Assembly: GCA_042218325.1 (NCBI GenBank) | Contig: JBDGRE010000001.1 | Location: 144,990 to 208,989 of the forward strand | Length of the DNA stretch: 64,000 bases | From: Candidatus Nanohaloarchaea archaeon | Lineage (GTDB): Archaea; Nanohalarchaeota; Nanosalinia; Nanosalinales; Nanosalinaceae | Reading direction: 5' to 3' | Part shown: positions 32,177 through 58,575 of the stretch, one piece after another | Layout of the letters: every line of letters begins with the position of its first letter | How positions within the stretch are numbered: position 1 is the first letter of the stretch | Notes under the pieces: model-generated | What the model was told of the DNA's origin: nothing | What the model saw: only the letters and a program-made list of their open reading frames with translations | The model's database searches: none | Position numbers and translations under genes: made by a program

Positions 32177-32233
32177 TGCCGGGATGGCAGAGAACGCACC
32201 TTTCGGTGCTCGATCTGCGCACCCGAGAGAAGA
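32177..32233 (+). repeat. 16-bp duplicate of tRNA-Cys 5' end, hairpin and inverted copy
   Basis: TGCCGGGATGGCAGAG at 32177-32192 equals 32234-32249; hairpin GCACC-TTTC-GGTGC; TCTGCGCACCCG is complementary to the copy. Confidence 0.85.
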
Positions 32234-32234
32234 T

Positions 32235-32305
32235 GCCGGGATGGCAGAGTAGTTATGCGACCGCCTGCAGAGCGGTCGACCCGGGTGCAAATCCCGGTCC
32301 CGGCT
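32235..32305 (+). tRNA. tRNA-Cys(GCA)
   Basis: Cloverleaf: acceptor GCCGGGA/TCCCGGC, anticodon arm ACCGC-CTGCAGA-GCGGT, T arm CCGGG-TGCAAAT-CCCGG, U discriminator; CCA not encoded. Confidence 0.93.
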
Positions 32306-32321
32306 TTTACGGGGTGGTGGC

Positions 32322-32750
32322 GTGAAGAGCTACGAGGATACCACCGATGTAGTCGTACTCGCTATATACCATGCGGAGGAGGACGGCAACTACTATCTCA
32401 TAGCGCGGAAAAGGAAGAACGAGTTCTGGGAGTTCGTCGGCGGGAAGGTCAAGAAGGGAGAGTCATACGAGGAAGCAGCGTTGCGGGAGCTGGAGGACGA
32501 GATAGAGATCGACTGGGACCTCGATGCTGTAGAGGTGAAGAAGGTCGGCGAACCGTACAAGAGCCCGGAGAACCCGGTGTACAATCTTTACCCGGTGCTG
32601 CTAGAGATCCCTTCGGAGACCGCCTGGGAGCTCGGGGACGAGGACCTGGGAAAGGAGCATGACAGCCTTGCGTGGATAACTGTCGACCAGCTCGACGACT
32701 ACGATACGATGCACCAGGAGAAGGCGCTTGAACTGCTCGGCATCACCTGA
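32322..32750 (+). CDS. NUDIX hydrolase
   Basis: GGKVKKGESYEEAALRELEDEI. Confidence 0.9.
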   Translation: MKSYEDTTDVVVLAIYHAEEDGNYYLIARKRKNEFWEFVGGKVKKGESYEEAALRELEDEIEIDWDLDAVEVKKVGEPYKSPENPVYNLYPVLLEIPSETAWELGDEDLGKEHDSLAWITVDQLDDYDTMHQEKALELLGIT

Positions 32751-32798
32751 ACCGGGCTATCGGTTGTGATAAAAAGTTTTACCAGTTATTTTACGCCC

Positions 32799-33611
32799 GT
32801 GAGAGGCTTAAGGACGGCGGAGGAAAGGATAGAGTACAAGCTTCCTGACGCCTGGGATTTTACCGGTTCGAACGTCGTCTACGGTTATCCTGTGCCCTCG
32901 GATTCTTTCCCGGACGGCTTCCTGCTATCCAACAGCGACCACCAACTGTACAACAGCCCGGTAGGAGAGAAAGATGTCGTGGCGTACGTTTCCCGGGAGG
33001 GAAGGGATGATATCGTGGCCTATATCGAGGTCAAGGAAAACGGGGGTCTGGAGGAAAGGGCCGAGGACCAGGTAGAACGGGCCTGCGAGTTCTGGAACTC
33101 GCGCGGCTACGCGTTCGCCGGTGGCTTCTCGACAGGCGAGACGATAAGACCGTGGGAGGGCGAGGTCTTCGGGGACGAAGAGATAGCACCTGCTGATTTC
33201 GACTTCCGGGAGGCCGAAGTTATACCGGCAGCCGCTGGCGACGGCCAAGAACCGCCCAGCGGCAAAGGCTTCGACCACCCGATGGTGGAGGGATGGGAAG
33301 AGGTGATCACCGACCTCGTTTACGGGGAACCACTCGACTCGAGCATCCCTCGAGGCCTGGTCGGCAGCAACGATAGAGGCCGGCATTTCGGCCAGATGGA
33401 CGCAGCTCTCTACAGCGATGAAGCCGATGTGATCGGGCAGATAGAGCTGAAGAAGGACGGTGAGGACATGGAGACCATAGAGGGGCGTCTTGACTCGGCC
33501 CACGAGTTCTGGACCGGCAAGGGTTACAGTTTCCAGGGAGGGCTGTTTGTGACCGGCGAGATAGTGCAGCGGGATTTCGATTCCGGTGAGTGGGTCGGCG
33601 CCCGGCTTTAA
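32799..33611 (+). CDS. hypothetical protein with two tandem PD-(D/E)XK-like repeats
   Basis: D...YIEVK...EFWNSRGYAFAGG and D...QIELK...EFWTGKGYSFQGG; GTG start inferred. Confidence 0.65.
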   Translation: MRGLRTAEERIEYKLPDAWDFTGSNVVYGYPVPSDSFPDGFLLSNSDHQLYNSPVGEKDVVAYVSREGRDDIVAYIEVKENGGLEERAEDQVERACEFWNSRGYAFAGGFSTGETIRPWEGEVFGDEEIAPADFDFREAEVIPAAAGDGQEPPSGKGFDHPMVEGWEEVITDLVYGEPLDSSIPRGLVGSNDRGRHFGQMDAALYSDEADVIGQIELKKDGEDMETIEGRLDSAHEFWTGKGYSFQGGLFVTGEIVQRDFDSGEWVGARL

Positions 33612-33655
33612 CCCGACGGTTTTAGGCTTTCCCTGCCGGATAATCAACTAAAGCT

Positions 33656-34066
33656 ATGACCGTGGACGTGGAAGACGATATCGCAGTACCAGTGACTTAC
33701 AGCCCGGAGAGGGACCGTTTCCTGCTGCTGAAACGTGGAGCTGATGCGGATGTCTTCCCGGGGAGATGGGACTTCCCGGGCGGCTATTTGAACGAAAGAG
33801 AGGACCCGGAGGACGCGGTGATGCGCGAATTGAAGGAGGAGACAGGTCTTCTCGGAACCATGATGAGGACTGGTGAGCCCCACGTCGTCGACACGCAGTA
33901 CGGCAAGTACCGGCTGCACTTGTTTCTCGTGAAGGTGGAGGGCGACGATGTCGATCTTAGCTATCAGCACGTCGATTATCGATGGGTGGAGCCCTCGGAG
34001 GTCCCGGAGATGGAAACTGTTAAGGCCATAGAGAAAGATTTCGAACTTGTCGGTGTCGAGATATGA
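33656..34066 (+). CDS. NUDIX hydrolase
   Basis: PGGYLNEREDPEDAVMRELKEETG. Confidence 0.92.
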   Translation: MTVDVEDDIAVPVTYSPERDRFLLLKRGADADVFPGRWDFPGGYLNEREDPEDAVMRELKEETGLLGTMMRTGEPHVVDTQYGKYRLHLFLVKVEGDDVDLSYQHVDYRWVEPSEVPEMETVKAIEKDFELVGVEI

Positions 34067-34518
34067 GCAGGAGCGAGTACAGGACCGTGGTCAAGGCGCT
34101 GATAACGTACCAGGGCCAGGTCTTGATAGGGCAGAAGGAGGAGGGTGACCAACCGCATTCCGGTGAATGGCATTTCCTCGGCGGTCACTTGGAGGACGAC
34201 GAATCGCTGGAAGAGGCTGTTGCCCGCGAGGTCGAAGAGGAGACAGGTCTCTCGGTTGATGTCCACCAGATAATAGATGCGATGGTTTTCTCCTGGAAGA
34301 AAGACGGCAGGACGGACTCGCTGCAGCTTCTTTACCACTGTGAAGCCTGGTCCCCGGAGGCTGAAGCCCGAGATGACCTTCAGGACGTGAAGTGGGTCGA
34401 CCCTGACGAACTCGTGGATGAGCTCTGGGACGAGGAAGTGAAGAGGATCGAGAACCGCGATGAGCGGGCGAAGTTCGTTGAAAAGCTAAAAAAGATGCCG
34501 TCGAGAGGTGAAGTATGA
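34063..34518 (+). CDS. NUDIX hydrolase
   Basis: GGHLEDDESLEEAVAREVEEETG. Confidence 0.92.
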   Translation: MSRSEYRTVVKALITYQGQVLIGQKEEGDQPHSGEWHFLGGHLEDDESLEEAVAREVEEETGLSVDVHQIIDAMVFSWKKDGRTDSLQLLYHCEAWSPEAEARDDLQDVKWVDPDELVDELWDEEVKRIENRDERAKFVEKLKKMPSRGEV

Positions 34519-36032
34519 CCTTGAAACTTTACAACACGCTGACCCGTGAAAAAAAGGAGTTCGAGCCGATCGAGAAGGACAAGGTCAGGTTCTACAGCTG
34601 CGGCCAGACGATATACGACGACCTCCACGTCGGTAATGCGAGGCCGTACGTCTACTGGGACACGCTTACACGGTACCTGCGTTGGAAGGGCTACACGGTC
34701 AGGCACGTCCAGAACATAACCGACGTCGGCCACCTGACAGATGATGGCGACCAGGGCGAGGACAAGGTCGAGAAACGCGCGAAAGAGACGGGGCTCGAGC
34801 CGATGGAGCTCGTCGAAGACCAGGTGGAGCGGTACTTCGAGGATACGAAAGCGCTGAACGTGCAGAGGCAGGACATCGTGCCCCGGGCCACCGGCCACAT
34901 AAACGAGATGATAGAGTACGTACAGGAGATAATCGACAACGGCTTCGCGTACGATAGAGAGGGTAACATCTACTTCGACCTCGAGAAGTTTGCGGAGGCC
35001 GACTTCGAGGACGTCGACGGAGAACCTTACCGTTACGGCAGGCTCGCAAAGAAAGATATAGAGGAGCTGAAGGAAGAGGCAGAAAGCCGTGTGGAGGAAG
35101 ACGAAAACAAAAAGCGGCAGTACGACTTCGCGCTCTGGTTAAATGCGGAGGGAACCGGCCACCTCATGAAGTGGAACGCCACGTTCGAGGTGGACGGCGA
35201 GACAGTAGAATCAGAGGGATACCCGGGCTGGCACCTCGAATGCAGTGTCATGGGCCGGAAGTACCTCAGCGACGTCTTCGACATCCATGCCGGTGGAAAG
35301 GACCATATCTTCCCGCACCACCCGAACGAGCGCGCGCAGAGCTTCGCCGCTACCGGAAAGGGCCAGGCCCGGTACTGGCTGCACAACGAGTTCGTCACCA
35401 TCGAGGGCGAGAAGATGTCGAAGTCGAAGGGCAACTTCTACACCGTCCGCGAACTACTTGACGAGGGCTACTCCGGCGACGCCATCCGGCTGTACATCCT
35501 GTCCTCGCATTACCGCAGCGAGACCGACTTCTCGAAGGAAGGCGTGGAGAAGGCGGAGAAGGAGCTGAAGAAGGCGAGGAAGACGGTCCAGAGGATAGGA
35601 TACGACGAGGATTACGAGGGCCGGCACCAGTTCGGAAGCCCAGGTGGGGAAGGCGGTGGTCACACCGAGGAGTTTGTGAAGTTCATGGATGACGACCTCA
35701 ACACCGCGAAAGCGAAGCAGTTCCTGATGGAGCTGGTTTCCGAGGTAAACGAGGCCCTGGAGAAGAACCCTGAAGAAGAAAGAGAGAGCTTCAGGGCTAT
35801 AGGCATGGGGAACTTCCTTGTCGAGGCCTTCGGTGTGCTCGGTATCGATGTCCGTCCAGACTTCTCTGAGGAGGAGTCGGAGTTGATGGACGAGCTACTT
35901 GAGATAAGAGAGGAGTACCGCGAGCAGGAAGACTACGAGAAGGCGGACCGCATCCGTTCGCTGATGGACAAGAACGGTTTCGAGGTCGAGGACACGGATG
36001 GAGGTGCTCGATGGTTCAAGGTCGAGAGGTAG
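34515..36032 (+). CDS. cysS: cysteine--tRNA ligase
   Basis: SCGQT, HVGN, GYPGWHLECS, DIHAGGKDHIFPHH, KMSKS, DDLNT. Confidence 0.96.
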   Translation: MTLKLYNTLTREKKEFEPIEKDKVRFYSCGQTIYDDLHVGNARPYVYWDTLTRYLRWKGYTVRHVQNITDVGHLTDDGDQGEDKVEKRAKETGLEPMELVEDQVERYFEDTKALNVQRQDIVPRATGHINEMIEYVQEIIDNGFAYDREGNIYFDLEKFAEADFEDVDGEPYRYGRLAKKDIEELKEEAESRVEEDENKKRQYDFALWLNAEGTGHLMKWNATFEVDGETVESEGYPGWHLECSVMGRKYLSDVFDIHAGGKDHIFPHHPNERAQSFAATGKGQARYWLHNEFVTIEGEKMSKSKGNFYTVRELLDEGYSGDAIRLYILSSHYRSETDFSKEGVEKAEKELKKARKTVQRIGYDEDYEGRHQFGSPGGEGGGHTEEFVKFMDDDLNTAKAKQFLMELVSEVNEALEKNPEEERESFRAIGMGNFLVEAFGVLGIDVRPDFSEEESELMDELLEIREEYREQEDYEKADRIRSLMDKNGFEVEDTDGGARWFKVER

Positions 36033-36033
36033 G

Positions 36034-36413
36034 ATGAAGATATACGTCGGTCATCCCACGGATTTCGATTTCGATTTCGAGGAGGAGCTTTACAGGCCTC
36101 TGAAAGAGAGCTCCATAGCGGAAGAGCACGAACTCGTCTTTCCCCACGATTCCGGGGAATTCTTCGAATCCAAAAGATTCCTGCGGGATGAGTGCGACCT
36201 GTTCGTCGCAGAGGTTTCCGGGCCTCGACAGGCCTCGGCATAGAACTCGGGTGGGCTGAAGAGTTCGGGGTCCCGGTTCTCTGCGTTTACAGGGAAGGAG
36301 CGGAGCCTTCAAGCGCAGTTGGCACGGACACCAGCGAGATCCGGGTGTACAGCGACGTGGAGGAGCTGACCAGGGTGGTCAGGGATAAATCGAGGTCGAT
36401 ATCAAGTGGTTGA
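36034..36413 (+). pseudogene. nucleoside 2-deoxyribosyltransferase-like protein, frameshifted (or sequencing error)
   Basis: MKIYVGH...CDLFVAEVS continues as RASTGLGIELGWA in another frame; a 1-nt deletion at ~36218-36222 explains it. Confidence 0.75.
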
Positions 36414-37127
36414 GTGCCCGATTTTCTGCTACCATGGCGTCAGCGAGGAACCGCGGCAGTGGGACGTGAAGCCGGGCGATTTCCGGGACCAGGTCGAGTG
36501 GCTGGACAGCAACTATAGCCTGATGCCGCTCGAAGAGTTTTTCACGCGTTTCCACGAGGAAGACCTGCCGGAGGACCCGGCGGTGCTGACGTTCAACGAC
36601 GGCCTCAAGTCCTCCTACAGGGCCGCTGATGTACTTGAAGATTTAGGCGCCAGGGCGACTTTCTACATCATAACAGGTCTCATGGGAGAGCTCTGGGATG
36701 GCGCCGAAGTCATGTCGTTGTCGCAGATGAAGGAGCTCGACGACAGGGGGCACGAGGTAGGCGCCCACACGGTCAGCCACCCAACCTGCCGAAATACAGT
36801 GACAGCCGTGTGAGGAAAGAGGTGGAAGGATTCGTCCGCGAGATTGAGGAAAGGCTGGGCTTGCGCCCGACATCCTTCGCCTATCCCTACGGCGACTACA
36901 GCAGCCGGGTCGTTGAAACCGTCCGGGAGCAGGGCTTTCAGGCCGCGGTCACGACTTCTCCGTCGGTCGAGGTGGATCTTGACAGGCCTCTCCGGCTCCC
37001 GAGGGTGCCAGTTCTGGAATGGCACAGTCTCGGCGACGTGAAGAGGCTTGCGGAGGACAGAAACTATCTTTATAGGTGTTACTGGCCCCGCGCCTACCAC
37101 TACCTCAGGCACCGGTTCCCGTTATAG
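36406..37127 (+). pseudogene. polysaccharide deacetylase (NodB), frameshifted (or sequencing error)
   Basis: CYHGV, LTFNDG, GAHTVSHP, then FAYPYG and LPRV in another frame; one extra C at ~36781 restores HPNL. Confidence 0.8.
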
Positions 37128-37159
37128 GTTTTTAGCTCCAGGAGAGAAAAACTCTCTTT

Positions 37160-37774
37160 ATGGACAGGAAGATAGGGGAGGGCCTGCAGTACCGTGTCTA
37201 CCGCGAGGGTGGAGGCCTGGCCCGCAAGGAACCGAAGAAACGGGAAGAGATGGTGGAGACGCTGAGGAAATGGCATGACTCCAGGCAGGAGGTGCAGGAA
37301 AACGCGGACAGGGCCGTGGAGAGGCGCAGAAAAGCGGTGGAAAGACTGGAGGAAGGAGGGTTCGATTTCTCGCTGCTCGGCGACCCGGAGTTCTGTGAGG
37401 ACGGCACTGTTTTACAGGACCGCGCACAGGTCGCGGGTGAAGTGATGTCGGGCGCCAGACTTTCCAAAAAGAAAGAAGTAGTAGATGACTACGTGCAGCT
37501 GCTCCTGCAGTTATGGGAGCAGGGGATAGGGGATACTATCTACAATTTCACTGAGAACACCGGCTACGTGGACGGCAGGCTCGTACACCTGGATTTCGGT
37601 GAGTTAGTTTTCTCGAAGAACAGGGTGAAGGAAGAGATCAGGGAAAGGAAATGGCTCGAGAAGTGGAGCTACACGGACGACCTGTCCGGAGATATCCGGC
37701 CCTACTTCCGGGAGCGGATGGCGGAAGAGATAACTGTAGAGGCGCTTGAGAGCCGCTGGAAAGAAAAAGTATAG
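37160..37774 (+). CDS. hypothetical protein, protein-kinase-like fold
   Basis: IGEGLQYRVY, conserved Lys, D-x-N segment and LVHLDFGE. Confidence 0.6.
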   Translation: MDRKIGEGLQYRVYREGGGLARKEPKKREEMVETLRKWHDSRQEVQENADRAVERRRKAVERLEEGGFDFSLLGDPEFCEDGTVLQDRAQVAGEVMSGARLSKKKEVVDDYVQLLLQLWEQGIGDTIYNFTENTGYVDGRLVHLDFGELVFSKNRVKEEIRERKWLEKWSYTDDLSGDIRPYFRERMAEEITVEALESRWKEKV

Positions 37775-37778
37775 TGAA

Positions 37779-38141
37779 TCAGTGGACCTGGCTCTTGTGG
37801 ACCTTCATGCCCCGGCTTGAGTCGAACTCGTCGCCGCACTCGGGGCAGGCCACCAGCTCTACTTCTTCATCTTCTTCGGTATCGTTTTCCTCTGTCCCGG
37901 CCTCTTTGGCTGCTGTTTCCTCTGTTTCTGGCTCTGGTTCTTCCGTGGTCTGCTCGACAGTTTCCGGCTCAGACTGGGTGCGGCCCTCGACCTGTTCAAG
38001 CTTGCCCTCTTCCTTCAGTTTCTCCCGTTTCTGCTGTTTGCGGTCGGGCTGTTCCTCGAAGATTTCCTTGGCGCGGTCGTCGGAGATTCCGAGCATCTCC
38101 TTGGCTTTCTGCTTCTGCTTCTCGGCCTTCTCTCTTACCAT
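37779..38141 (-). CDS. acidic protein with C-terminal C2H2 zinc finger
   Basis: CPECGDEFDSSRGMKVHKSQVH. Confidence 0.75.
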   Translation of the reverse strand: MVREKAEKQKQKAKEMLGISDDRAKEIFEEQPDRKQQKREKLKEEGKLEQVEGRTQSEPETVEQTTEEPEPETEETAAKEAGTEENDTEEDEEVELVACPECGDEFDSSRGMKVHKSQVH

Positions 38142-38177
38142 CGTATCATGAAAAACGGTCTTCAGGTTTTAAACAGA

Positions 38178-39281
38178 TTAGGGTACCAGCTCCGTGAAGT
38201 TCTCTTTGAACTCCTCGTAGTACTCGGGCTTCATCGACGCGCCCGCGGCCTTTCTGTGGCCTCCTGCCTCCGCTCCCTCTTCTACCGCCTCTTCCGGCAG
38301 CGCCTGCTGCATCAGGTCGCCGAGGTCAACCCTTCCGGATTGACACCGTGCCGAGATGTTGACTTCGTCTTCGTCCTTCTGCACCACGAGATGTATCCAC
38401 TCTGGTGTCTTGGTCGACTTGTTGGTCGCTATCGACGAGGTGATGTGGAAGTCGCTTTCGAGGTCGAAGAATATTATCATCTTCTCCCTGTCGATCTCCC
38501 GGTCCTCGTCGTAGTCCTCCACCGCTCTATTGAACTCATCCTGCATCTCGAGGTAGACCTCGTAGACCTGGCGGTACTCCTCCTGTGCCTCCAGCTCCTT
38601 CAGGTCCTCCGATTTCATCAGGGCCTGGTAGGCGAGCTTCGCGAAGTGCGCCGAGTCGCGGTACGGCTTGATGTTCAGTACGCTCGAGTACCGGCCGTAC
38701 TCGCAGTTCTTCGCGAGCTGCTGCTGTGAAAGCTCTTCAGGAAGGTACTTGTCGTACTCCTCCGCCAGTTCCTCGAATAGCTCCGGGCAGGAGTCGACGC
38801 CGAAGTCCTGGATAACCCCGAGTCCCGCTATCCACCGGACGTCGTCCTCGATGCCGAATTTGGAGGCGATGTCCAGGCAGATCTTGCTGCAGGGCACGTA
38901 GTCCTCCTCGTGCTCGATACGTGGATTGACGAAGGGTACGTCCGGGACGCGGTCGAATGTGTGATGGTCGACCACGAGCACCTCGAGGTCGAAGTCTTGG
39001 TCGATGGATTCCAGCTCGTCCGCCCCGAGGTTGAAGTCCAGCACGATGAGCCTGTCCGTTTCCTCGAGCTTTTCGTGGTCCTCTTCGCCGAGGTGGTAGG
39101 CCCGGGTGTGAGGTATCATGACCTCCTCTGCGGGTTCGCCCCTGACTTCCTCCAGTATCTTGGATGTGATGACCGCTGACGAGCTGCCGTCCATGTCCCA
39201 GTGGTGGATGATGGTGACGTGGTCGTCCTCGCCCACGTTTTCGAGATAGTCTATAGCTGGCTGTAGTTCTTTCTGTTGCAT
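38178..39281 (-). CDS. DHH/DHHA1 phosphoesterase (RecJ-like)
   Basis: HWDMDG, VLD, VDHH, NP, ISAR, GGHRKAAG. Confidence 0.9.
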   Translation of the reverse strand: MQQKELQPAIDYLENVGEDDHVTIIHHWDMDGSSSAVITSKILEEVRGEPAEEVMIPHTRAYHLGEEDHEKLEETDRLIVLDFNLGADELESIDQDFDLEVLVVDHHTFDRVPDVPFVNPRIEHEEDYVPCSKICLDIASKFGIEDDVRWIAGLGVIQDFGVDSCPELFEELAEEYDKYLPEELSQQQLAKNCEYGRYSSVLNIKPYRDSAHFAKLAYQALMKSEDLKELEAQEEYRQVYEVYLEMQDEFNRAVEDYDEDREIDREKMIIFFDLESDFHITSSIATNKSTKTPEWIHLVVQKDEDEVNISARCQSGRVDLGDLMQQALPEEAVEEGAEAGGHRKAAGASMKPEYYEEFKENFTELVP

Positions 39282-39286
39282 AGTAT

Positions 39287-42313: not shown

Positions 42314-42357
42314 GTTCTTGAGCAGGCAAATGAAAGTTAAAAGGATTGCCGGCAGGT

Positions 42358-42810: not shown

Positions 42811-42823
42811 ACTGCTTTCACTT

Positions 42824-43615: not shown

Positions 43616-43616
43616 A

Positions 43617-45478: not shown

Positions 45479-45482
45479 CGTG

Positions 45483-46630: not shown

Positions 46631-46656
46631 ATAGGCTGCGGGTCCGCAGGAACAAT

Positions 46657-48581: not shown

Positions 48582-48627
48582 ACTCCTACAGACGCCGCCT
48601 GTATTGAAAACGGTTCTGGTACAGCTC

Positions 48628-48972: not shown

Positions 48973-49026
48973 GGTTTGAACAGTGTACCACAACAGACTA
49001 AATACCTCGTTCTCTCATCGTTGTTT

Positions 49027-49830: not shown

Positions 49831-49842
49831 AAAGGCTTGAAT

Positions 49843-49931
49843 CGCCGGCGCTGGGATTTGAACCCAGGAGGGCCGTCACAGCCCAGCAGATCTCGAATCT
49901 GCCGCGTTCAACCAGGCTCCGCCACGCCGGC
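49843..49931 (-). tRNA. tRNA-Ser(CGA)
   Basis: GCCGGCG/CGCCGGC acceptor, GCAGA-TTCGAGA-TCTGC, long variable arm, CTGGG-TTCAAAT-CCCAG, G discriminator. Confidence 0.95.
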
Positions 49932-50059
49932 AGCGAACTTCTGAAAGTTCGAACATCATGCTCTGCGTCCGCGCTAGCGCAGAGCAGGCTTCAGAAGGTT
50001 CCGCCTGTTTAGCGTTGGCTCGCCTAAGCTTTTATTTAGTTAGCCGAAAGTTGTTCTCC

Positions 50060-50731: not shown

Positions 50732-51390
50732 GTTACGAGGGCGTTATCTTTGACTTCGACGGCGTCCTGCTGGACGCTGCTTTCGACGACTGGAAGTGGG
50801 CAGAGAAGGCGCGGAGGGAGAAGGCCCGCGAACTCGACTACGAGATAGACGGTAACGGCAGGCACGGCTTCCTTTTCCAGACCGACTCTCTCGACGAGAT
50901 GAAGCAGATGGTGGAGGAGAACGGTTTCACGTGGCACGACTAAATAGAGGTCGAGAAGGCCGCGGCTGCCCGGAAGGCGGAGATGGTGAGGAACGGCGAG
51001 ATGGAGCTTTTCCCGGATGCCCGGCAGGTGCTGCGGGAGATAGAAGCCCCGAAAGCCGTGGTCAGCAACGCTTTCGGCGCCACGCTCGACGACATAGTGC
51101 TCCACCTCGGGATAGACGAGCACCTGGAGTTCTGGGCCGCGCCCAGCCTCTCCGAGATAGAGAGGTACCACGAAATCATGAAGCCCGAGACCCACATGCT
51201 GGAGGACGCGCTCGAGGTGCTCGGAACCAGGAACGTGGTCATGATAGGCGACAGCGACTTCGATATCCGGGCCGCGAAGAACGCCGGCATCGACTCCGTC
51301 CTCATCGACCGCGGGAAGAAGGTGGACGTGGAGCCTGACCACGTGGTCGACAGCCTGGAAGAGTTTTCCTGGCTTGTCAGGGAGCGTTAA
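50728..51390 (+). pseudogene. HAD family hydrolase; in-frame TAA at 50941-50943
   Basis: DFDGV before the stop; VSNA, KP and GDSDFD after it in the same frame. Confidence 0.85.
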
Positions 51391-51415
51391 AAGCCTTCAC
51401 CGGCAGCTTGAACCC

Positions 51416-52396: not shown

Positions 52397-52431
52397 AAAC
52401 GTCCGGCCCGGAAACTTTGATACCTGGTAAC

Positions 52432-53394
52432 ATGAAAGCGATAGTTCTTGCAGGCGGCCACGCGACGAGGCTGTGGCCCATAACGAAGGACCGTGCCAAA
52501 CCTCTCCTCCCCCTCGGGGACAGGCCGATAATAGACTTCATAGTTGAAGACCTCGAGGACGAGGTCGACGATATAGTAATTTCCACGAACGAGAAGTTCG
52601 CGGATGACTTCCGGAAGTACATCGAGGATTTCGAGAGAGATGCCCAGGTGGTGGTGGAGAACCAGGACTCGGAGGAGGAGAAACCAGGCACCATCGGCGC
52701 TATGATACAGCTGATAGAGCAGGAAGACATATCTGACGACCTCCTGATAGTCAACGGCGACAACTACCTCGGTTTCAGCTTCCCGGAGATGCTGGACTTC
52801 TGCCGCGAACGTGACGGCCCGGTAAACGTGGTCTACGACCTTTCAAGCAGGTCTCAGGCCTCATCCTTTGGCGTCGTCGACACGGAGGGCGACCGCATCG
52901 TCGGGTTCGAGGAGAAGCCCGACGAACCACCATCGACGCTGATATCCACCGGCGTCTACTACTTCCCGTCCCACAGGGTTTCTCTTTTCCACCAGTACGA
53001 GGAGCACTTCTCGGGCACTGACGTTCCCGCGGACCAGTACCTCGACGAGCCTGGCAGGCTTATCGAGTGGGCCCACGAGAAGACCGACATGTACGCGTTC
53101 TCGTTCGACGGCGACTGGTTCGACATCGGGTCTCCCGAGGGCTATCTCGATGCCCTGCAGAGCGTCATGGATGGCAACATCGTCAAGGGCGAGACATCTA
53201 ACTGTGGCATAGGCGAGAACGTGCTGGTCCTGCAGGACACGGTGCTGGAGAATGTCGAGATAGAGAACTCTGTGGTGTTCCCCGAGACAGAGATACGTGA
53301 CTCCACGATCAGGAACTCGCTGATCGACAGCCACTCCGAGATCGAGGACGCGGACGTGAACGACGCTATTCTCGGCAAGCATTCCTCGATGTAG
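52432..53394 (+). CDS. NDP-sugar synthase / nucleotidyltransferase
   Basis: ILAGGHATRLWPIT...KPLLP, EEKP, WFDIG, beta-helix C-terminus. Confidence 0.92.
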   Translation: MKAIVLAGGHATRLWPITKDRAKPLLPLGDRPIIDFIVEDLEDEVDDIVISTNEKFADDFRKYIEDFERDAQVVVENQDSEEEKPGTIGAMIQLIEQEDISDDLLIVNGDNYLGFSFPEMLDFCRERDGPVNVVYDLSSRSQASSFGVVDTEGDRIVGFEEKPDEPPSTLISTGVYYFPSHRVSLFHQYEEHFSGTDVPADQYLDEPGRLIEWAHEKTDMYAFSFDGDWFDIGSPEGYLDALQSVMDGNIVKGETSNCGIGENVLVLQDTVLENVEIENSVVFPETEIRDSTIRNSLIDSHSEIEDADVNDAILGKHSSM

Positions 53395-53413
53395 GCCAAG
53401 CCTCTTCTTAAGT

Positions 53414-53848
53414 TTAGCCTTTTCCTGTCGCGTCCGCGAGTCTTCCTATATCCCTGTCGTGGCGCCAATGCCTCTCCAGCGCCCTATCAAGGCTGATCCA
53501 GGACGGCTCTCCTTCCCAGTGGCCGCCGGTCGCTTTGCTGTTCACGGGCCGGCCGCGGAATATCTTCTCGACGCCGCCGACCGAGTTCTCCTGTTCCATG
53601 AGCAACTCCTGCACCTCTATCTCCACGCCGGTCTCCTCCCGGGTTTCGCGTTCCGCGGTCTCCCTGAAGCTTTCGCCGCTTTCTATGCCTCCGCCGGGCA
53701 GCATCAGGTAGTCGCCGGTGTCGATAGCAAGTATCTTCTCGTCCTCGACGACTACCGCTGCGGCGGAGCAACGCAGCCATAGAACTTTCCCGAGAAGACC
53801 GTAGCCGATGTCCTTGCCCCGCCAGCTTATCCACGAGCGTATGCCCAT
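53414..53848 (-). CDS. NUDIX hydrolase
   Basis: PGGGIESGESFRETAERETREETG. Confidence 0.88.
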   Translation of the reverse strand: MGIRSWISWRGKDIGYGLLGKVLWLRCSAAAVVVEDEKILAIDTGDYLMLPGGGIESGESFRETAERETREETGVEIEVQELLMEQENSVGGVEKIFRGRPVNSKATGGHWEGEPSWISLDRALERHWRHDRDIGRLADATGKG

Positions 53849-53892
53849 ATCAAAGAATTGCCGCGCAGGTTAAAATTAGAAGGGAAAAATAG

Positions 53893-54007
53893 TCTGGCAG
53901 CGTCCCGAACCTTCCGCCGGTAAGGCAGTACTACTCGGATCGCTGAGGGACTTTACTTCCGTGTTCGGAATGGGTACGGGTGTTGCCCACTCGCTGTGGC
54001 CGCCAGT
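53893..54007 (-). rRNA. rrf: 5S rRNA (stand-alone)
   Basis: GGCGGCCACAGCG...ACACCCGTACCCATTCCGAACACGGAAGTAAAG...AGTAC...CGCTGCC; own TTTATAA box and T-tract. Confidence 0.95.
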
Positions 54008-54091
54008 ATGGTATCTGGACTGGTCAAATCTTATAAACCGAACGCCGGGGGTCCCGGGAACCTTATAGTCGACCGGGCGCAGTCTGTTTCC

Positions 54092-54334
54092 ATGAGCCAC
54101 AGGGGAGGTTCTCGGCTGGAGAAATCCACGGTCATAGATATCCTGACCATAGCGGTGCTGGCCTACGATGGCTTCATGCTGTACAACTCGCTCGGCTACA
54201 GCAAAGAACAGGTTTTCACACCGTTTGCCTCCCTGACAGTCGGCGCGATACAGCTGACCGCCGTGCTTGTGCTGGTTTATTTCCTCGAGTTCCTTTACGA
54301 CAGGGCACGAGGCTCCAGCGGGCCGCTAGGTTAG
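54092..54334 (+). CDS. small 2-TM membrane protein
   Basis: Two hydrophobic helices; TTATA upstream. Confidence 0.55.
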   Translation: MSHRGGSRLEKSTVIDILTIAVLAYDGFMLYNSLGYSKEQVFTPFASLTVGAIQLTAVLVLVYFLEFLYDRARGSSGPLG

Positions 54335-54763
54335 TATATCGAGCAGTTCTTTTCCGCGGCCTTTCGGCACCCGGGAGGAGACCTTACCGTTCTTGTAGAA
54401 GCCGCAGCCGATGACCCTGTCCTCGTACCTGAGAGCGACGTAACCTTTCGACTCCATCTCGCCCTCAACCATCTCCTCCCTTCGAAGAAGCTTCACTAGC
54501 TCCTGCCTTTCGAGCTCTACCACGTTGTCCTGTATGTACCGGCCGATAAGCTGCAGGCCGTACGTCGTCGGTTTCAGGCCTACATCCATGATCCTGATGA
54601 ACCGTATGCCGTAGGTCTCCACGTCAAGCCCTGTAACCAGTCCCTCCGAGACCAGCCAGAGGTCGCCGGAGACCTCTTTCAGCCTGTGATCCTCCAGGCA
54701 CTCTTTGGTGACACCGAACCGGTCCTCGAGGTATCTCCAGCCCCTACTTGCTGAATCTGGCAA
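54326..54763 (-). CDS. RsmF/NOL1 C-terminal (PUA-like) domain protein
   Basis: GLKPTTYGLQ, GYVAL...IGCG, RVPK; overlaps the upstream methyltransferase. Confidence 0.7.
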   Translation of the reverse strand: MPDSASRGWRYLEDRFGVTKECLEDHRLKEVSGDLWLVSEGLVTGLDVETYGIRFIRIMDVGLKPTTYGLQLIGRYIQDNVVELERQELVKLLRREEMVEGEMESKGYVALRYEDRVIGCGFYKNGKVSSRVPKGRGKELLDILT

Positions 54764-55619
54764 CGAATATCACCCCGGACTCCATGTGGTGTGCATACAC
54801 TCTCAAGGTTTTCTCCATCTCGCCGCCGTATTCTTCGCCCCGGAAGCCGTCGACTCCTCGCTGGTGTGGCCCGTCGAGTTCCACGTGTTCGAGTTTTAGG
54901 CCTGTGTTCTCGAGCGCGTGCTCGACCACCTCCTCGTTTTCCTCCGGCGCGATGGTGCATGTGGAGTAAACCAGGGTGCCTCCCTCCTCTACGAGAACGG
55001 CCGCTTTCTCCACCAGCTGTTTCTGCAACCTGGAAAGGCTCTCTATCTCATCCCTGTCCGCCGGCTCGAAGTCGCGGCGGGCCCGGTCGCCCTCGCCTGA
55101 GCACGGCGCGTCGACAAGCACCCGGTCGTAGCTCTCGTCCTCCGGGAGGTGCCGGCCGTCGTAGTTAGTGGCGGCGACGCAGGCGGCACCGGTACGGTAA
55201 ACGTTGGCGTGAAGGCTCTTCATCCGCTTCGCCGACGCGTCGTTCGCCATCACCTTTCCGCGGTTGTCCATCTTTGCGGCCATCTGCGTCGATTTTCCGC
55301 CTGGCGCCGCACACATGTCGAGTACGGCGTCGCCGGGCTGCGGGTCGAGTGCGTTCACCGGTATCGCTGCCGACTCTTCCTGCACGTAGTACTCTCCCCG
55401 CCAGTGCATCATGCTCTTTCCCGGCCGCTTTTCATCTCTCAGCCGGTAGACTTCCTGGTTCCAGGCGGACTGTTCGACGTCGTCGAACTCTCGGTGGAGT
55501 CTGCTCTCGAAATCGTCGCATGCTTTCAGCCTGTTCCTTCTTACCGCGCTCAGCGCCGGGCTTTCGCACGCCTCCTGGAATGCCTGCCAGTCGTCGATTA
55601 TGTCCCTGTACCGCTCCAT
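54744..55619 (-). CDS. RsmB/NOP2 family RNA m5C methyltransferase
   Basis: YYVQE, DMCAAPGGKS, DAPCSGEG, YSTCT...ENE. Confidence 0.94.
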   Translation of the reverse strand: MERYRDIIDDWQAFQEACESPALSAVRRNRLKACDDFESRLHREFDDVEQSAWNQEVYRLRDEKRPGKSMMHWRGEYYVQEESAAIPVNALDPQPGDAVLDMCAAPGGKSTQMAAKMDNRGKVMANDASAKRMKSLHANVYRTGAACVAATNYDGRHLPEDESYDRVLVDAPCSGEGDRARRDFEPADRDEIESLSRLQKQLVEKAAVLVEEGGTLVYSTCTIAPEENEEVVEHALENTGLKLEHVELDGPHQRGVDGFRGEEYGGEMEKTLRVYAHHMESGVIFVARFSK

Positions 55620-55620
55620 C

Positions 55621-56187
55621 TTACATCTCGTCCAGCCGTGTCTGACCAGATTTTTCCCTGCCGAACGCCTTTCTCAGATCTTCCTCAAGTTCCGGTTCCT
55701 TTGTGTTGTCGTACAGGACAGCTGCGGGATGGAAAGTCGGCATTATCTTCTGGCCCTCCCGCGAGAAGATCCGACCGTGAATCGAGGTTATACATTTGCT
55801 GGTGTCCAGCAGCTCTTTCGATGCGAAGTTCCCGAGAGGGATTATGAACTCCGGGTCGATTTCCTCTATTTCCTCGCGGAGCAACGGCTCCCAGGCCTCT
55901 ATCTCGTCTTTCTTCGGGTCCCTGTTCCCCGGCGGCCTTATCTTCACCAGGTTTGTGATGTACAGCTCGTCCCGGTCCACGCCTATCCGGTGAAGTATCT
56001 CATCAAGTTTTTCGCCGGCGCGGCCGACGAACGGCTCTCTTTCCTCGACCTCGTTCGCCCCCGGCGCCTCGCCCACGAGCATCGCGTCCGCATCATCGGG
56101 CCCCACGGCAGGCACGAACCTTTCCCCGTCGAAGTAGCCGGAGTCGAGCTGCCTGAAGAACTCGCTGTACTTCTGCCTGAAACTCAT
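55621..56187 (-). CDS. uracil-DNA glycosylase, family 4-like
   Basis: VGEAPG...E...PFVGRAG, YITNLVK.RPPGNRDP, LGNFA, FHPAA. Confidence 0.9.
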   Translation of the reverse strand: MSFRQKYSEFFRQLDSGYFDGERFVPAVGPDDADAMLVGEAPGANEVEEREPFVGRAGEKLDEILHRIGVDRDELYITNLVKIRPPGNRDPKKDEIEAWEPLLREEIEEIDPEFIIPLGNFASKELLDTSKCITSIHGRIFSREGQKIMPTFHPAAVLYDNTKEPELEEDLRKAFGREKSGQTRLDEM

Positions 56188-56238
56188 GCATACAGCAGTG
56201 TGGCGAAGAACTATAATCCTTGCCGCCGGACCGGTGTT

Positions 56239-56415
56239 ATGGAACTCGACGGGAAACAGGCCCTCGGCATCATCGGGGTCACAACTGCGCTTTTCGGGCT
56301 CTTGGTCTTCCCGCTCGCAGTCCAGCATTACACCGGTACCAGTGCGGTCAAGGTGACGTTCGGTATTATAGTGCTCTACGCCGCGTTAAGCTGGTGGATG
56401 AAGAACCGGAGATGA
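56239..56415 (+). CDS. small 2-TM membrane protein
   Basis: MELDGKQALG..., two TMs, TATAAT ~25 nt upstream. Confidence 0.55.
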   Translation: MELDGKQALGIIGVTTALFGLLVFPLAVQHYTGTSAVKVTFGIIVLYAALSWWMKNRR

Positions 56416-56425
56416 AAAGTTTACA

Positions 56426-56472
56426 TCCCGACCCCGATCTGAACGAAACTTCTGAAAGTTTCATCATCAGGA
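56426..56472. repeat. degenerate copy of tRNA-Tyr 3' end plus AACTTCTGAAAGTT hairpin
   Basis: TCCCGACCCC-GATCTGAACG resembles TCCCGACCCCCCGATTTGAACG; followed by GAAACTT-CTGA-AAGTTTC. Confidence 0.7.
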
Positions 56473-56685
56473 AAGGCTCCAGTGGGTGCCAGATATCTTT
56501 AGCGCATTCGAGGAAAAACTGTCTTAGTGTTGGTTTCTAAGATTTTATCATCGCCCTTGAGATGCTTATCCGGGACCTGTTTTCCCGTGTTGATAGGGGA
56601 GAGTTGTTTTGGTCGTTTTAGTATACATAGTCTCGAAAGTCAGGAGTGGGAGAGATACTAAAGCTTGAGTGAGAATAAGTTAGAG

Positions 56686-56764
56686 TCCCGACCCCCCGAT
56701 TTGAACGGTCGAAAACTCGAAGCGTTTTCTGGCAGCCCAAATCGGGCGGAAAAGGGAACGAAGT
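56686..56764 (-). repeat. 23-bp duplicate of tRNA-Tyr 3' end, hairpin and inverted copy
   Basis: 56686-56708 equals 56765-56787; hairpin GAAAAC...GTTTTC; 56733-56757 is a degenerate inverse. Confidence 0.88.
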
Positions 56765-56838
56765 TCCCGACCCCCCGATTTGAACGGGGGACAAGTCGCT
56801 CTACAGGCGACCGCTCTGCCAGACTGAGCTAGGTCGGG
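56765..56838 (-). tRNA. tRNA-Tyr(GTA)
   Basis: CCCGACC/GGTCGGG (C1:G72, the archaeal Tyr identity pair), GTCGC-CTGTAGA-GCGAC, CCCCG-TTCAAAT-CGGGG. Confidence 0.95.
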
Positions 56839-56882
56839 GCTGTGGCTGTGAGAGAACAGTATACTGGTGGAGGCTCAAGTTT

Positions 56883-58238
56883 TTAAGTGTCGCCAGGCCT
56901 GAACTCTGCCTCTGTCTCTCCGGTCTCCGCGGCTTTCTGGCCGCCGGACTCGAGCTCGGCGGGCGGAAGCGTTACGCCTCCCTCTACCTCGAACATCGGG
57001 CTTATGGTGTACTCGAAGACCCTCTGGCTGCCGGGCTCCAGCTCGTCGATCTCCCATGTCAGTCTCGTCCCGTTGGAGGTCTTCCTGATAACAGGTTTCG
57101 CCATCGGGAATTCCTCGCTGACAGTGGCTATGTCCGGGACGAAATCCTCCACTGTGACCTCCCTGACTGGTTGTCCTGAATGGTTCTCCAGCTCGATGTG
57201 CACCTTTATGCCTTCCTCTGTTTTCCTCGCGGTCTTCCTGAAGGACAGCTCGGTCCTGATGTGTTTGAGAGCTAAAAGGCCGGCGAGCAGCGCTATGAGT
57301 ATCGAGCCAGGTATCCAGTAGTCGGTGGTGCGGCTTGCCGATTCTGTCTCTCCGGGACCGAGCTCGAAGTTCCAGCTGTAAGTCGTGGAGTCGCCTTTGT
57401 CAGTTCTACTGTCGGGTGCCGGTTCGAAGGATGTTATCGGTCTCAGGTAGTCCGGCAACGTCTGGTTCAGCTCGACTGTTGTCGGGGCGTTACCGGTGTT
57501 CTTCACGCTTGCAGTCCTGGTGTAAAAGAGCAGGCGGTTGTCCTTTTCGACGCTTCTCTCAACCCTGCGCACCTGTTCCACTGTTATCGTCTGGTTGACC
57601 GTCTGCCTGGCCTCCCCGCCCCGAATCACGGAAAGAGTTACACGTTTCTCCCCCGGCGCCGCGTCATCCGGTACAGGGAGGTTCAGCGCAAGCACTCCTG
57701 ATGAGCCCGGCGAGAGAGGAAGACCTTGTTTTTCCGTAGAGCTCTCCCCCATGATCGCCCGGACGCTGTAGTCCTCGACCCTCGAAGGCGCGGTGTTCAG
57801 GATGCCTACCCGGAACTCCGCGGTCTCACCCGGCGTGTAACCCTGACTACGGCTCGAAAAAGTCCTTATCACGAGGTCTTCGGGCTGCTCAACCGTGAAG
57901 TAGTCTGTGAAGCTCCGGGTTTCCCCGCCCGCGGTCACGGTCGCGTCGAAACGGTAGTTCTGCTGTACGGCGTTCTCTGGGGGTGTGACTATCAGTTCGA
58001 ACGTATGATTTTCTCCTGCAGGCACGGTAAGTGTGCTCTCCGTGTAGAACCACGAGGAGTAAGGTGCGGCGCTCAACTGGAACATCATGGCTTCGGGTGC
58101 GGTATTTTCCACTTCCAAATGGAAGACGCCGGGGTCCTCTGTACTCGCCTTCCTGTCAACCGCCTGGAGAGAGGCCGAAAAGCTGTAGGCCGACGTTATG
58201 AGCAGCACCACGAGAACCAGGCATAACAGCTTCCGCAT
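56883..58238 (-). CDS. secreted Ig-like repeat membrane protein (COG1470/S-layer-domain-like)
   Basis: Signal peptide, repeated 'V.NT' Ig strands, LGPGE, internal TM, further Ig-like domain after the TM. Confidence 0.75.
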   Translation of the reverse strand: MRKLLCLVLVVLLITSAYSFSASLQAVDRKASTEDPGVFHLEVENTAPEAMMFQLSAAPYSSWFYTESTLTVPAGENHTFELIVTPPENAVQQNYRFDATVTAGGETRSFTDYFTVEQPEDLVIRTFSSRSQGYTPGETAEFRVGILNTAPSRVEDYSVRAIMGESSTEKQGLPLSPGSSGVLALNLPVPDDAAPGEKRVTLSVIRGGEARQTVNQTITVEQVRRVERSVEKDNRLLFYTRTASVKNTGNAPTTVELNQTLPDYLRPITSFEPAPDSRTDKGDSTTYSWNFELGPGETESASRTTDYWIPGSILIALLAGLLALKHIRTELSFRKTARKTEEGIKVHIELENHSGQPVREVTVEDFVPDIATVSEEFPMAKPVIRKTSNGTRLTWEIDELEPGSQRVFEYTISPMFEVEGGVTLPPAELESGGQKAAETGETEAEFRPGDT

Positions 58239-58336
58239 GTCCTATCCTTTGTTCTGAGATTATTTAAAGCCGGCCAGCCCGGTTTTCCGGCCCTTGCAAA
58301 GCGCCGTAGCGATGTCTCCGGCGGAGGATATCTTGA

Positions 58337-58476
58337 TGGCAGGGCCGGGATTTGAACCCGGGTCCACGCGTATTCCGATCGAAACCGCAGTCAAACGGTT
58401 TCTCAGTCCCAGTCCGCCGCCCTGGCGGACTTGAGGCTCCCGAACGCGCGATTATGGTCCACTAAACCACCCCGCC
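58337..58476 (-). tRNA. tRNA-Pro(CGG) with 67-nt intron at 37/38 (58372-58438)
   Basis: GGCGGGG/CCCTGCC, GCGCG-TTCGGG^A-CGCGT, CCGGG-TTCAAAT-CCCGG; intron CGGA pairs with UUCG to give a 4-bp helix and 3-nt bulge (relaxed BHB). Confidence 0.9.
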
Positions 58477-58480
58477 TTCC

Positions 58481-58575
58481 TACTCGGGATCATGAGGGTG
58501 GTTTCGAAAACCTGACGGTTTTTCTCAGATGATCGAACTTTCGGAAGTTCGATCCAGTAAACCACCCCGCCTTCC
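58481..58575 (-). repeat. 18-bp duplicate of tRNA-Pro leader/5' end, two hairpins and inverted copy
   Basis: 58558-58575 equals 58463-58480; hairpins at 58531-58554 and 58506-58524; AAACCACCCT is complementary to the copy. Confidence 0.88.

Follow-up and report, generated by a model that had tools for sequence, protein, structure and literature searches.

Intron-related cassettes with duplicated tRNA ends beside intact tRNA genes in Nanohaloarchaeota

Among the described systems closest to the sequences considered here are the bulge-helix-bulge (BHB) introns of archaeal tRNA genes, among them introns at non-canonical positions, which Fujishima reportedly treated in 2010. Like these introns, the cassettes reported here are short structured inserts in tRNA transcription units, with related sequences in many tRNA genes and an arm that pairs with the adjoining exon, and the same hairpin family occurs in introns of this genome. 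However, the cassettes leave the tRNA uninterrupted, duplicate the end of an exon, have no BHB joining the two copies and sit in the leader or trailer. Transposition of introns between tRNA genes is reported for Thermoproteales (PMC4090602). MITEs resemble the cassettes in forming families of many copies, in being flanked by direct repeats and in being present at a locus in some genomes while others show a clean empty site, but the cassette repeats (11-25 nt) vary in length, are bounded by the mature tRNA end and co-evolve with the tRNA, and the usual terminal inverted repeats and partner transposase are missing.

Integrases usually target a tRNA from the T arm to the 3' end. The att duplications found at tRNA 3' ends are dealt with in Sugahara 2012 (PMC3293823). 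As in the cassettes, the 3' part of the tRNA, T arm to end, is directly repeated and the gene stays intact; unlike att duplications, the cassettes have an interior of 40-77 nt rather than kilobases, carry no recombinase, occur at 5' ends too and contain an oriented hairpin and an antisense segment. Split and permuted archaeal tRNA genes have complementary leader and trailer segments, so that in both cases sequences outside the tRNA pair together or with tRNA parts and would guide maturation, but here the gene is whole and colinear, and the pairing partner is a duplicate of the tRNA's own end. Finally, in the terminator, antiterminator and anti-antiterminator switches of bacterial leaders a middle segment pairs with either neighbour. 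The cassettes likewise have three segments with a middle one that can pair either way, although here the two outer segments both repeat one tRNA end exactly, a regulated gene downstream is absent and the lineage is archaeal. The cassette layout beside tRNA genes seems to be undescribed.

The window is the whole 64,000-nucleotide stretch of DNA that was analysed, from Candidatus Nanohaloarchaea archaeon, a nano-archaeon of salt lakes. Three of its four tRNA genes are associated with the following features; at the fourth, Ser-CGA (49842-49932), a copy of its own end was not found.

32177-32192, plus strand: distal exact copy of the Cys 5' cassette (tRNA-Cys -1 to +15; 16 nt, 100%)
32193-32213, plus strand: hairpin of the Cys 5' cassette (stem 32196-32200 / 32205-32209; TCGA at 32210-32213)
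32214-32227, plus strand: imperfect antisense of the Cys copy (4 bp, 3x3 loop, 5 bp)
32235-32305, plus strand: tRNA-Cys(GCA), intact and intron-less (ARAGORN, Rfam); proximal copy 32234-32249
56686-56708, minus strand: distal exact copy of the Tyr 3' cassette (T-stem position 51 to discriminator 73)
56709-56729, minus strand: GAA..TTC hairpin, then GA, of the Tyr 3' cassette, abutting the distal copy
56736-56749, minus strand: antisense arm of the Tyr 3' cassette, directed at the T loop and the 3' strand of the T stem (12 nt with 92% complementarity to each of the copies)
56750-56764, minus strand: spacer of the Tyr 3' cassette, second part of the imperfect reverse complement, which can pair with the tRNA's last bases
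56765-56838, minus strand: tRNA-Tyr(GTA), intact (ARAGORN, Rfam); proximal copy 56765-56787
58336-58360, minus strand: 3' end of tRNA-Pro(CGG), an empty site in the window, duplicated around a 39-nt interior in related strains
58337-58476, minus strand: tRNA-Pro(CGG), with a canonical intron of 67 nt at 58372-58438
58379-58402, minus strand: GAA..TTC hairpin and GA of the tRNA-Pro(CGG) intron, lying immediately ahead of the 4 nt that pair with the anticodon loop
58463-58480, minus strand: proximal copy of the Pro 5' cassette (-4 to +14 of tRNA-Pro)
58496-58503, minus strand: antisense arm of the Pro 5' cassette, directly 3' of the hairpin's GA
58504-58524, minus strand: GAA..TTC hairpin and GA of the Pro 5' cassette, with a sequence much like that of the hairpin in the Gln(TTG) intron
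58531-58554, minus strand: first hairpin of the Pro 5' cassette, with 10-bp perfect arms
58558-58575, minus strand: distal exact copy of the Pro 5' cassette

An earlier note on this DNA had described an exact 16-23 bp copy of one tRNA end 57-95 bp away at tRNA-Cys, tRNA-Tyr and tRNA-Pro, and this description is confirmed. The direct repeat is 16 nt long at Cys (32177-32192 and 32234-32249, spacing 57), 23 nt and exact at Tyr (56686-56708 and 56765-56787, spacing 79), and 18 nt and exact within a 23-nt, 96% repeat at Pro (58458-58480 and 58553-58575, spacing 95). The ranges that the note gave for the tRNAs are cassette spans, the tRNAs themselves lying at 32235-32305, 56765-56838 and 58337-58476. 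Between the copies are 41, 56 and 77 nt with no gene inside. Rfam returned only tRNA, 5S and SRP in the window, without a family match for the cassettes, and nothing but tRNA above noise for 11 cassette loci.

To gauge chance matches, 1340 pairs were formed between the ends of 38 tRNAs and the flanking sequence of other tRNAs. On the 5' side a match of 10 nt was reached by only 9 pairs; on the 3' side 14 nt was reached by 14 pairs, with a maximum of 20, because T arms are common to different tRNAs. The own-flank matches are, for comparison, 16, 18 and 23 nt. An assembly artefact, which the earlier note had raised, is rejected on the strength of contigs from other samples: the Tyr cassette is present on contigs of two other samples with one difference each, and these also have the Pro 5' cassette, longer by about 47 letters. 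For the antisense arm, the best pairing score was reached by 175 (Cys), 61 (Tyr) and 162 (Pro) of 2000 shuffles, so that a single arm of the window stands weakly above chance, and its reality rests on the family-wide alignment.

A hairpin ending in TCGA and followed directly by the outer-stem strand is found, as first noticed, in all three cassettes and in the intron of tRNA-Pro(CGG), whose outer helix H1 and central helix H2 are complete (4/4 each). Many canonical introns of this genome end in a GAA..TTC hairpin and GA, next to which comes the segment pairing with the anticodon loop, and another such hairpin is found in the trailer of the 23S rRNA, about 64 nt after its end. Hairpin sub-families are common to the Pro 5' cassette and the Gln intron, and to the Lys 3' cassette and the Ile intron. 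The suspected link to introns holds, and the cassettes are kin to the canonical introns of this genome.

The cassettes are widespread. About 14 of the 40 tRNAs of this Nanohaloarchaeota genome bear one (seven at 5' ends, ten at 3' ends) and about 26 do not, so the refuting condition named in the earlier note, that other tRNAs lack them, was half borne out. A strict 3' signature, consisting of hairpin, TTCGR and T loop, was used to scan 70 genomes of the order; 43 contained it, with 143 matches as against 4 in the reversed control. In this genome there are nine matches, each of them immediately 3' of a tRNA, and the Tyr hairpin is matched at G000:C1:201687-201719. Several nearly complete genomes (98-99%) lack the strict signature, which indicates that the cassette is dispensable. 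Related interiors adjoin at least ten tRNA species in many genomes, many genera have one interior family next to their tRNAs for Ser, Leu, Tyr, Arg and Pro, and some of its members (genomes G005, G047, G006 and G053) have an identical hairpin and loop at different tRNAs.

The two copies evolve in concert. Of 30 cassettes compared over T54-N73, drawn from 20-odd genomes, 18 show no difference between the copies, 7 show one mismatch, 1 shows two and 1 five, and 3 are truncated; the Tyr copies of the window are identical at 20/20 positions. At positions where orthologous tRNAs differ, the base agrees between the copies in 45 of 49 cells (a hand count, across genera), and in repeats running beyond the discriminator the mismatches fall in that part while the tRNA part is exact. 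The antisense arm tracks changes in the T stem, with GC, CG, GU, UG and AU pairs at two columns; in the family alignment 81% of cells are paired, and the covariation score was reached by 14 of 500 shuffles. The Tyr arm follows the T-stem change seen in genome G008, and the Cys arm is kept by orthologues in G002, G006 and G018. In 17 cassettes of one family the hairpin stems are invariant and the loops variable. Furthermore, BLAST alignments to other genera end at the end of the distal copy, beyond which the flanking DNA is unalignable. This joint change of copies and antisense arm, together with conservation against unalignable flanks, indirectly supports the earlier suggestion of an antisense leader or trailer.

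The position of promoter-like boxes is consistent with such a transcribed leader. An A/T-rich, promoter-like box lies about 30-37 nt upstream of the Cys distal copy, and a promoter-like box about 30-39 nt upstream of the Pro distal copy on the tRNA strand; in all, five of the seven 5' cassettes have one at normal distance from the distal copy. None was seen by eye between a 5' cassette and its tRNA, except for an A-rich stretch in Leu-GAG and Leu-TAG. T-runs at the distal 3' end do not mark a terminator (5 vs 7 of 25).

We tentatively favour, with somewhat less than even confidence, the reading that the cassettes are relatives of introns that, in Nanohaloarchaeota, have spread into the transcribed regions flanking tRNA genes. 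On the RNA strand, a 5' cassette consists of a distal copy S, a conserved GAA..TTC hairpin with GA, an imperfect antisense S', a short spacer and the tRNA starting with S; a 3' cassette consists of the tRNA ending with S, a short loop, S', the GAA..TTC hairpin and distal S. Cassette and tRNA would be transcribed together, and the leader or trailer would be cut off by RNase P or RNase Z; an RNase Z is encoded (315 bits), and there is a candidate RNase P RNA (E 5e-13, score under the Rfam cut-off). Because an intact S is kept beside the tRNA body, no splicing would be needed. S' could pair with either identical S, briefly holding the neighbouring tRNA end and then passing to the distal copy, which would thereby act as an anti-antisense. 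This handover would cost no energy, so that the acceptor stem could then close. At the DNA level, an insertion accompanied by duplication of the tRNA end would create a cassette, and recombination or slippage involving both copies would remove it and restore a normal gene.

Strand exchange of this kind fits the 5' cassettes better; in the 3' ones the acceptor partner precedes S' in synthesis. In addition, when four 3'-cassette pre-tRNAs were folded thermodynamically, the 5' acceptor strand paired with the distal copy in three of them, so an identical distal copy could also trap the RNA. Other points against the favoured reading are the dispensability of the cassette, the weakness of single antisense arms in the window and the T-runs that do not mark a terminator. 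No enzyme for the insertion step turned up among the reverse transcriptases and HUH transposases searched for, and target duplications of 11-25 nt that vary in length and are bounded on one side by the end of the mature tRNA fit no known transposase.

Evidence of turnover comes from tRNA-Pro. Contigs about 96% identical from other samples (runs X2, X3 and X4) carry a 39-nt interior and a duplicated 58336-58360 at its 3' end, where the window has a clean, precise empty site. The comparison of strains proposed earlier thus yields a filled and an empty allele, and this polymorphism, together with the related interiors at many tRNAs, supports the idea of element-like behaviour. Orthologous cassettes are also missing from a same-genus genome. 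A purely selfish miniature mobile element, in which a hairpin and antisense unit inserts at tRNA ends picked by the arm and duplicates a long piece of its target, with the perfection of the repeats due to youth and re-insertion rather than function, would account for the precise empty site, the patchy distribution, the shared interior family and the identical hairpins at different tRNAs, as well as for interiors akin to introns, which reportedly move among Thermoproteales tRNA genes (PMC4090602). However, some cassettes are old orthologues (Tyr in this genome and G008; Cys in this genome, G002, G006 and G018), with the antisense diverged and the copies identical and tracking the tRNA. Perfect close repeats would be expected to be lost fast unless selected. 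Moreover, the search for an HUH transposase or reverse transcriptase came back empty, with neither RVT_1 nor a Y1 (HUH) transposase found in this 96% complete genome. We consider the selfish element a rather unlikely explanation.

A second alternative treats the cassettes as genuine non-canonical introns beside an exon that is present twice: the tRNA body would be joined to the distal copy, and the proximal copy and the interior would be spliced out. The distal copy does end exactly at the discriminator, acceptor pairing with it is equally good in folding, and diverged distal copies still pair with the 5' acceptor strand (3/3 changes keep pairing in Arg-CCT; one change gives a G-U pair in Leu-TAA); the hairpin type otherwise occurs in endonuclease substrates, namely introns and the 23S trailer. 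Nevertheless, a product-preserving BHB with full outer and central helices was found in 0 of 16 cassettes as against 16 of 25 canonical introns, and in three cassettes the distal copy is missing its acceptor part. The sole splicing endonuclease gene found encodes a 182-aa single-domain type, which is strict, and splicing is unneeded for an uninterrupted gene. We regard this reading as improbable. A classic BHB intron was rejected, the tRNA being uninterrupted at Cys and Tyr according to ARAGORN and Rfam; at tRNA-Pro, removal of the canonical intron suffices for maturation.

More improbable still is an origin in att biology at the DNA level, with the cassettes as scars of integrated elements or as decoy sites that divert integrases from the gene. 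The 3' copies do run from T arm to 3' end, seven tyrosine integrases are encoded, some of them adjoining tRNAs, and one cassette remnant stops exactly at a junction common to low-GC contigs. However, none of the integrases lies within a cassette, att flanks on the low-GC contigs lack the cassette hairpin, the short interiors carry the same oriented, RNA-type hairpin, and the antisense arm and its covariation would be left unexplained. The view that these are not ordinary att duplications is upheld by the geneless interiors of 41-77 nt and by the same design at 5' ends. Least probable is a guide or decoy small RNA, in which a released hairpin would act in trans as a C/D-like T-loop guide or tRNA minihelix mimic: fibrillarin and L7Ae are encoded, and by eye the antisense base opposite C56 is fixed 5 nt from the hairpin in the commonest family, reminiscent of the fifth-nucleotide rule, but the protein enzyme for Cm56, aTrm56, is encoded as well (143.6 bits), the cassettes have no C box and no Rfam match, the kink-turn GA at the 3' side is GG in most relatives, and the 5' cassettes have no comparable target.

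A bolder possibility, which we hold to be quite unlikely, is that these are living intermediates of tRNA intron gain in archaea, arising by an antisense-guided insertion that duplicates the stretch covered by the guide. The gene would at first stay intact; once the proximal copy decayed, the cassette would become a genuine non-canonical intron, whereas recombination between the repeats would erase it. If this were true, there would be a guide-directed, target-duplicating movement that no known transposase or integrase explains. Overall, the cassette layout may bear on the origin of tRNA introns and on the folding of pre-tRNA.

Four tRNAs lie within the window, each called by both ARAGORN and Rfam. 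The ranges that the earlier note had given as tRNAs proved to be stretches beside them, the Cys, Tyr and Pro genes being placed elsewhere by both programs; the exact direct repeats of tRNA ends that it described at these three genes were recovered by a repeat search.

32235-32305, + strand, tRNA-Cys
49842-49932, - strand, tRNA-Ser-CGA
56765-56838, - strand, tRNA-Tyr
58337-58476, - strand, tRNA-Pro-CGG with a 67-nt canonical intron
32177-32192 and 32234-32249, Cys direct repeat, 16 nt exact, spacing 57
56686-56708 and 56765-56787, Tyr direct repeat, 23 nt exact, spacing 79
58458-58480 and 58553-58575, Pro repeat, 18 nt exact inside a 23-nt near-repeat, spacing 95

Each repeat consists of a proximal copy, at the tRNA's own end, and a distal copy at the far edge of a short insert, or cassette. 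As had been described, one or two hairpins separate the copies at all three genes, the last one terminates in TCGA with, directly after it, a strand able to pair across the cassette with its opposite side, and the tRNA-Pro intron has the same hairpin ending. GAA..TTC forms the base of this last hairpin. The imperfect antisense segment is likewise present but weak locus by locus, its score being reached by 175, 61 and 162 of 2000 shuffles for Cys, Tyr and Pro, each taken alone. The Tyr and Pro cassettes recur on contigs from other samples and are therefore no assembly artefact. In a related strain (runs X2 and X3, two other sequencing samples), the first hairpin of the Pro 5' cassette holds about 47 extra letters at position 58546. 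The only tRNA in the window without a copy, tRNA-Ser-CGA, has a GAA..TTC-type hairpin 18 nt upstream (49933-49960, - strand), which may be a decayed cassette. The window also encodes an SRP RNA (30422-30688, - strand), for which the best Rfam model is the bacterial large SRP at 77 bits; the archaeal model belongs to the same clan, and its lower score was suppressed.

The genome holding the window (G000; 1.07 Mb, 35 contigs, 96% complete) has 43 tRNAs predicted by ARAGORN with introns allowed, most of them with long canonical introns. A census of 38 of these, with 1340 cross-tRNA pairs as control, found a repeat of the tRNA's own 5' end in its flank at 7 tRNAs (10-18 nt) and of its 3' end at 8 (12-24 nt); the distal copies at Arg-CCT and Leu-TAA have diverged. 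Whether other tRNAs carry cassettes, a point on which the earlier note had let its proposal turn, thus has a divided answer: about 14 of 40 in this genome have one, but the rest do not. Throughout the genome the order on the tRNA strand is constant, namely distal copy, hairpin plus GA, antisense, spacer and tRNA in 5' cassettes, and tRNA, short loop, antisense, hairpin plus GA and distal copy in 3' cassettes. The 3' distal copy runs from T-stem position 50-54 to 0-2 nt beyond the discriminator, and the full copied segment has its imperfect reverse complement in the stretch from tRNA to hairpin. Across 70 genomes of the order, a strict 3' pattern gave 143 matches versus 4 for the reversed control and occurred in 43 genomes from three families; some genomes of the order that are 98-99% complete had no match, and cassettes are present in the complete genomes among the relatives.

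Seven expected anticodons (Val-GAC, Val-CAC, Thr-GGT, Thr-TGT, Gly-CCC, Arg-CCG and elongator Met) were not found by ARAGORN in G000, and hidden tRNAs dependent on the distal copy were looked for by a screen of its intergenic hairpins of cassette type, which yielded 16 candidates and no new tRNA. ARAGORN wrongly took Leu-TAA for a stop suppressor and Arg-TCG for Lys, and predicted a tRNA-Ile whose anticodon is TAT and whose intron is 117 nt long. A weak tRNA-Glu-like stretch with an odd 5' part lies at G000:C23:17521-17586.

Comparison with relatives points to constraint on both copies and on the arm between them. The tRNA-Tyr cassette also occurs in three genomes of other genera (G008, G002 and G012) and in one of another family (G029), where BLAST alignments extend to the final base of the distal copy and no further, the flanks being unalignable; in each genome the distal copy matches that genome's own tRNA. 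A T-stem pair differs between G008 and G000, and the proximal copy, distal copy and antisense arm all differ accordingly. Over T54-N73 in 30 cassettes, the copies are identical in 18, have one mismatch in seven, two in one and five in one, and three cassettes end after the T loop. By hand count, both copies agree in 45 of 49 cells at positions variable among orthologous tRNAs, and where a repeat extends past the discriminator the mismatches fall there, the tRNA part being exact. At the 5' end, the Cys cassette is common to 4 of 12 loci examined and its copy follows its tRNA (A or T at position 7); homologous 5' cassettes are found at Pro tRNAs of G001, G007 and G026.

An alignment of 17 sequences of one cassette family, lying beside Ser, Leu, Tyr and other tRNAs, has seven invariant hairpin pairs around a variable loop. 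The helix between antisense and T arm is 81% paired, with GC, CG, GU, UG and AU pairs at two columns; its covariation score was reached by 14 of 500 shuffles, and sliding the partner by one column lowers pairing from 89% to 57% or less.

Promoter-like boxes lie at gene-like distance from the distal 5' copy in five of seven cases, and G000 encodes RNase Z, an enzyme that accepts minihelix substrates, and a candidate RNase P RNA. On this basis we interpret the cassettes as inserts in the leader or trailer, transcribed together with the tRNA, that would be trimmed off with the flanks. A missing RNase P or RNase Z as the reason for an alternative processing device was rejected, as both appear present; terminator position was also set aside, T-runs after the proximal versus the distal end not being clearly different. 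In such a transcript, the middle, antisense arm could take either of two identical tRNA-end segments as its partner, so that it might exchange between tRNA end and decoy at no energy cost. Apart from this strand exchange, we see no simple reason why selection would maintain a decoy identical to the tRNA end and a compensated antisense. In predicted folds, either copy serves the 5' acceptor strand equally well, in terms of energy, as a pairing partner, a result that cuts both ways because it would also allow an RNA trap.

The cassettes also turn over, and one rival reading makes them a selfish element. A comparison of strains for empty sites, which the earlier note had proposed, revealed that the 3' end of tRNA-Pro(CGG) has both filled and clean empty alleles. 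Three other runs, from two studies, contain contigs with about 96% identity to the window that carry the filled allele, a 39-nt interior (antisense to the T loop plus hairpin) together with a duplication of 58336-58360, the tRNA's 3' end; the window is a clean empty site there. Recombination between the repeats would be the obvious route of loss to such a site. The same-genus genome G001 has neither the Cys cassette nor the distal Tyr copy. Near-identical interiors adjoin different tRNAs in different genera, and in G015, a complete genome, a pair of Ser genes separated by 475 kb is identical over the 3' half and the cassette, identity stopping at the distal copy. Neither a reverse transcriptase nor a Y1/HUH transposase, both named earlier as enzymes to look for, was found in G000. 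We give a selfish element lower odds. Origin by tandem duplication of an old trailer was rejected, the interior being unlike the sequence that follows the distal copy, both at Tyr and at the polymorphic Pro site; repeats run into the trailer at three loci in relatives.

A second rival, also less probable, takes the cassettes for introns with a redundant exon. Many canonical introns end in a hairpin of cassette type, often one that shares its sequence sub-family with a cassette, directly ahead of the four nucleotides that base-pair to the anticodon loop. A test of bulge-helix-bulge geometry (BHB, the splice-site structure of archaeal tRNA introns), validated on canonical introns, found both helices, outer and central, complete in 16 of 25 of these, and a product-preserving site with both helices in 0 of 16 cassettes; a free BHB scan of cassettes gave only scattered matches of the kind expected by chance. 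No Rfam family, ribozymes included, matches the cassettes. Thus, the cassettes are related to canonical introns yet are not introns by the defining tests. Small splicing endonucleases are strict in substrate choice, and G000 has one such gene, of 182 aa, whose product shares 59-68% identity with the endonucleases of named Nanohaloarchaeota. Outside the window, about 64 nt behind the 23S rRNA 3' end (Rfam positions 2672-2987; G000:C24:1-396), lies a hairpin pair of tRNA-intron design, a first hairpin and then a GAA..TTC hairpin plus GA; no such hairpin was found at 5S rRNA. The GAA..TTC motif is thus not confined to tRNAs, and it may label splicing-endonuclease substrates. Each of the four runs has contigs with 58370 joined to 58438; these are tRNA-Pro versions without the window's intron (58372-58438) and probably derive from other community members. 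In the same-genus genome, too, the two Pro exon matches are adjacent, without an intron-length gap.

Integrase att sites follow sublocation rules within tRNA genes, and att-site biology is a further reading of lower probability. The integrase search returned seven tyrosine integrases in G000 but none inside a cassette; three of the seven lie within 1 kb of tRNA genes. A tRNA-Pro 3' cassette remnant (G000:C5:62650-62735) stops exactly at a recurrent junction sequence that also adjoins copies of the tRNA-Pro 3' end on low-GC contigs.

C5:77518, further site listed with the Pro remnant or junction
C20:1971, further site, likewise
C26:70, further site, likewise
C2:59767, further site, likewise

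An integrative element seems to use the tRNA-Pro 3' end as its attachment site, which is perhaps a distal copy. Contigs C3, C20, C21, C26, C27 and C33 have 42-47% G+C versus 55-58% elsewhere in G000, and probably represent mobile elements or foreign DNA binned with this genome; on C3, two intron-less tRNA-Arg genes stand side by side.

Guide RNAs are likewise given poorer odds: kink-turns form by known sequence rules and Cm56 is C/D-guided in Pyrobaculum, and tandem G-A pairs are possible by eye in G000 cassettes, but the kink-turn/L7Ae and C/D-guide reading was rejected on the 3' GA, by eye GG in most relatives, and the presence of aTrm56 in G000 counts against a C/D guide.

No description of the copy, hairpin and antisense layout beside tRNA genes was found in the literature searched, a scope that leaves aside subscription journals and supplementary files, possibly with relevant tRNA tables. 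The extra copies of tRNA ends confuse the annotation of both tRNAs and att sites. With regard to how archaeal tRNA introns move and originate, the cassettes offer a concrete, testable intermediate: they have the introns' hairpin, leave the neighbouring gene intact, include a duplicate of an exon end and are polymorphic among close strains. Finally, if cassettes are co-transcribed inserts, a leader or trailer with an antisense arm able to select either its tRNA's end or the identical decoy would represent a novel form of control in cis, acting on how the pre-tRNA folds or on how its ends are processed; the organism is a salt-lake dweller with a 1-Mb genome.
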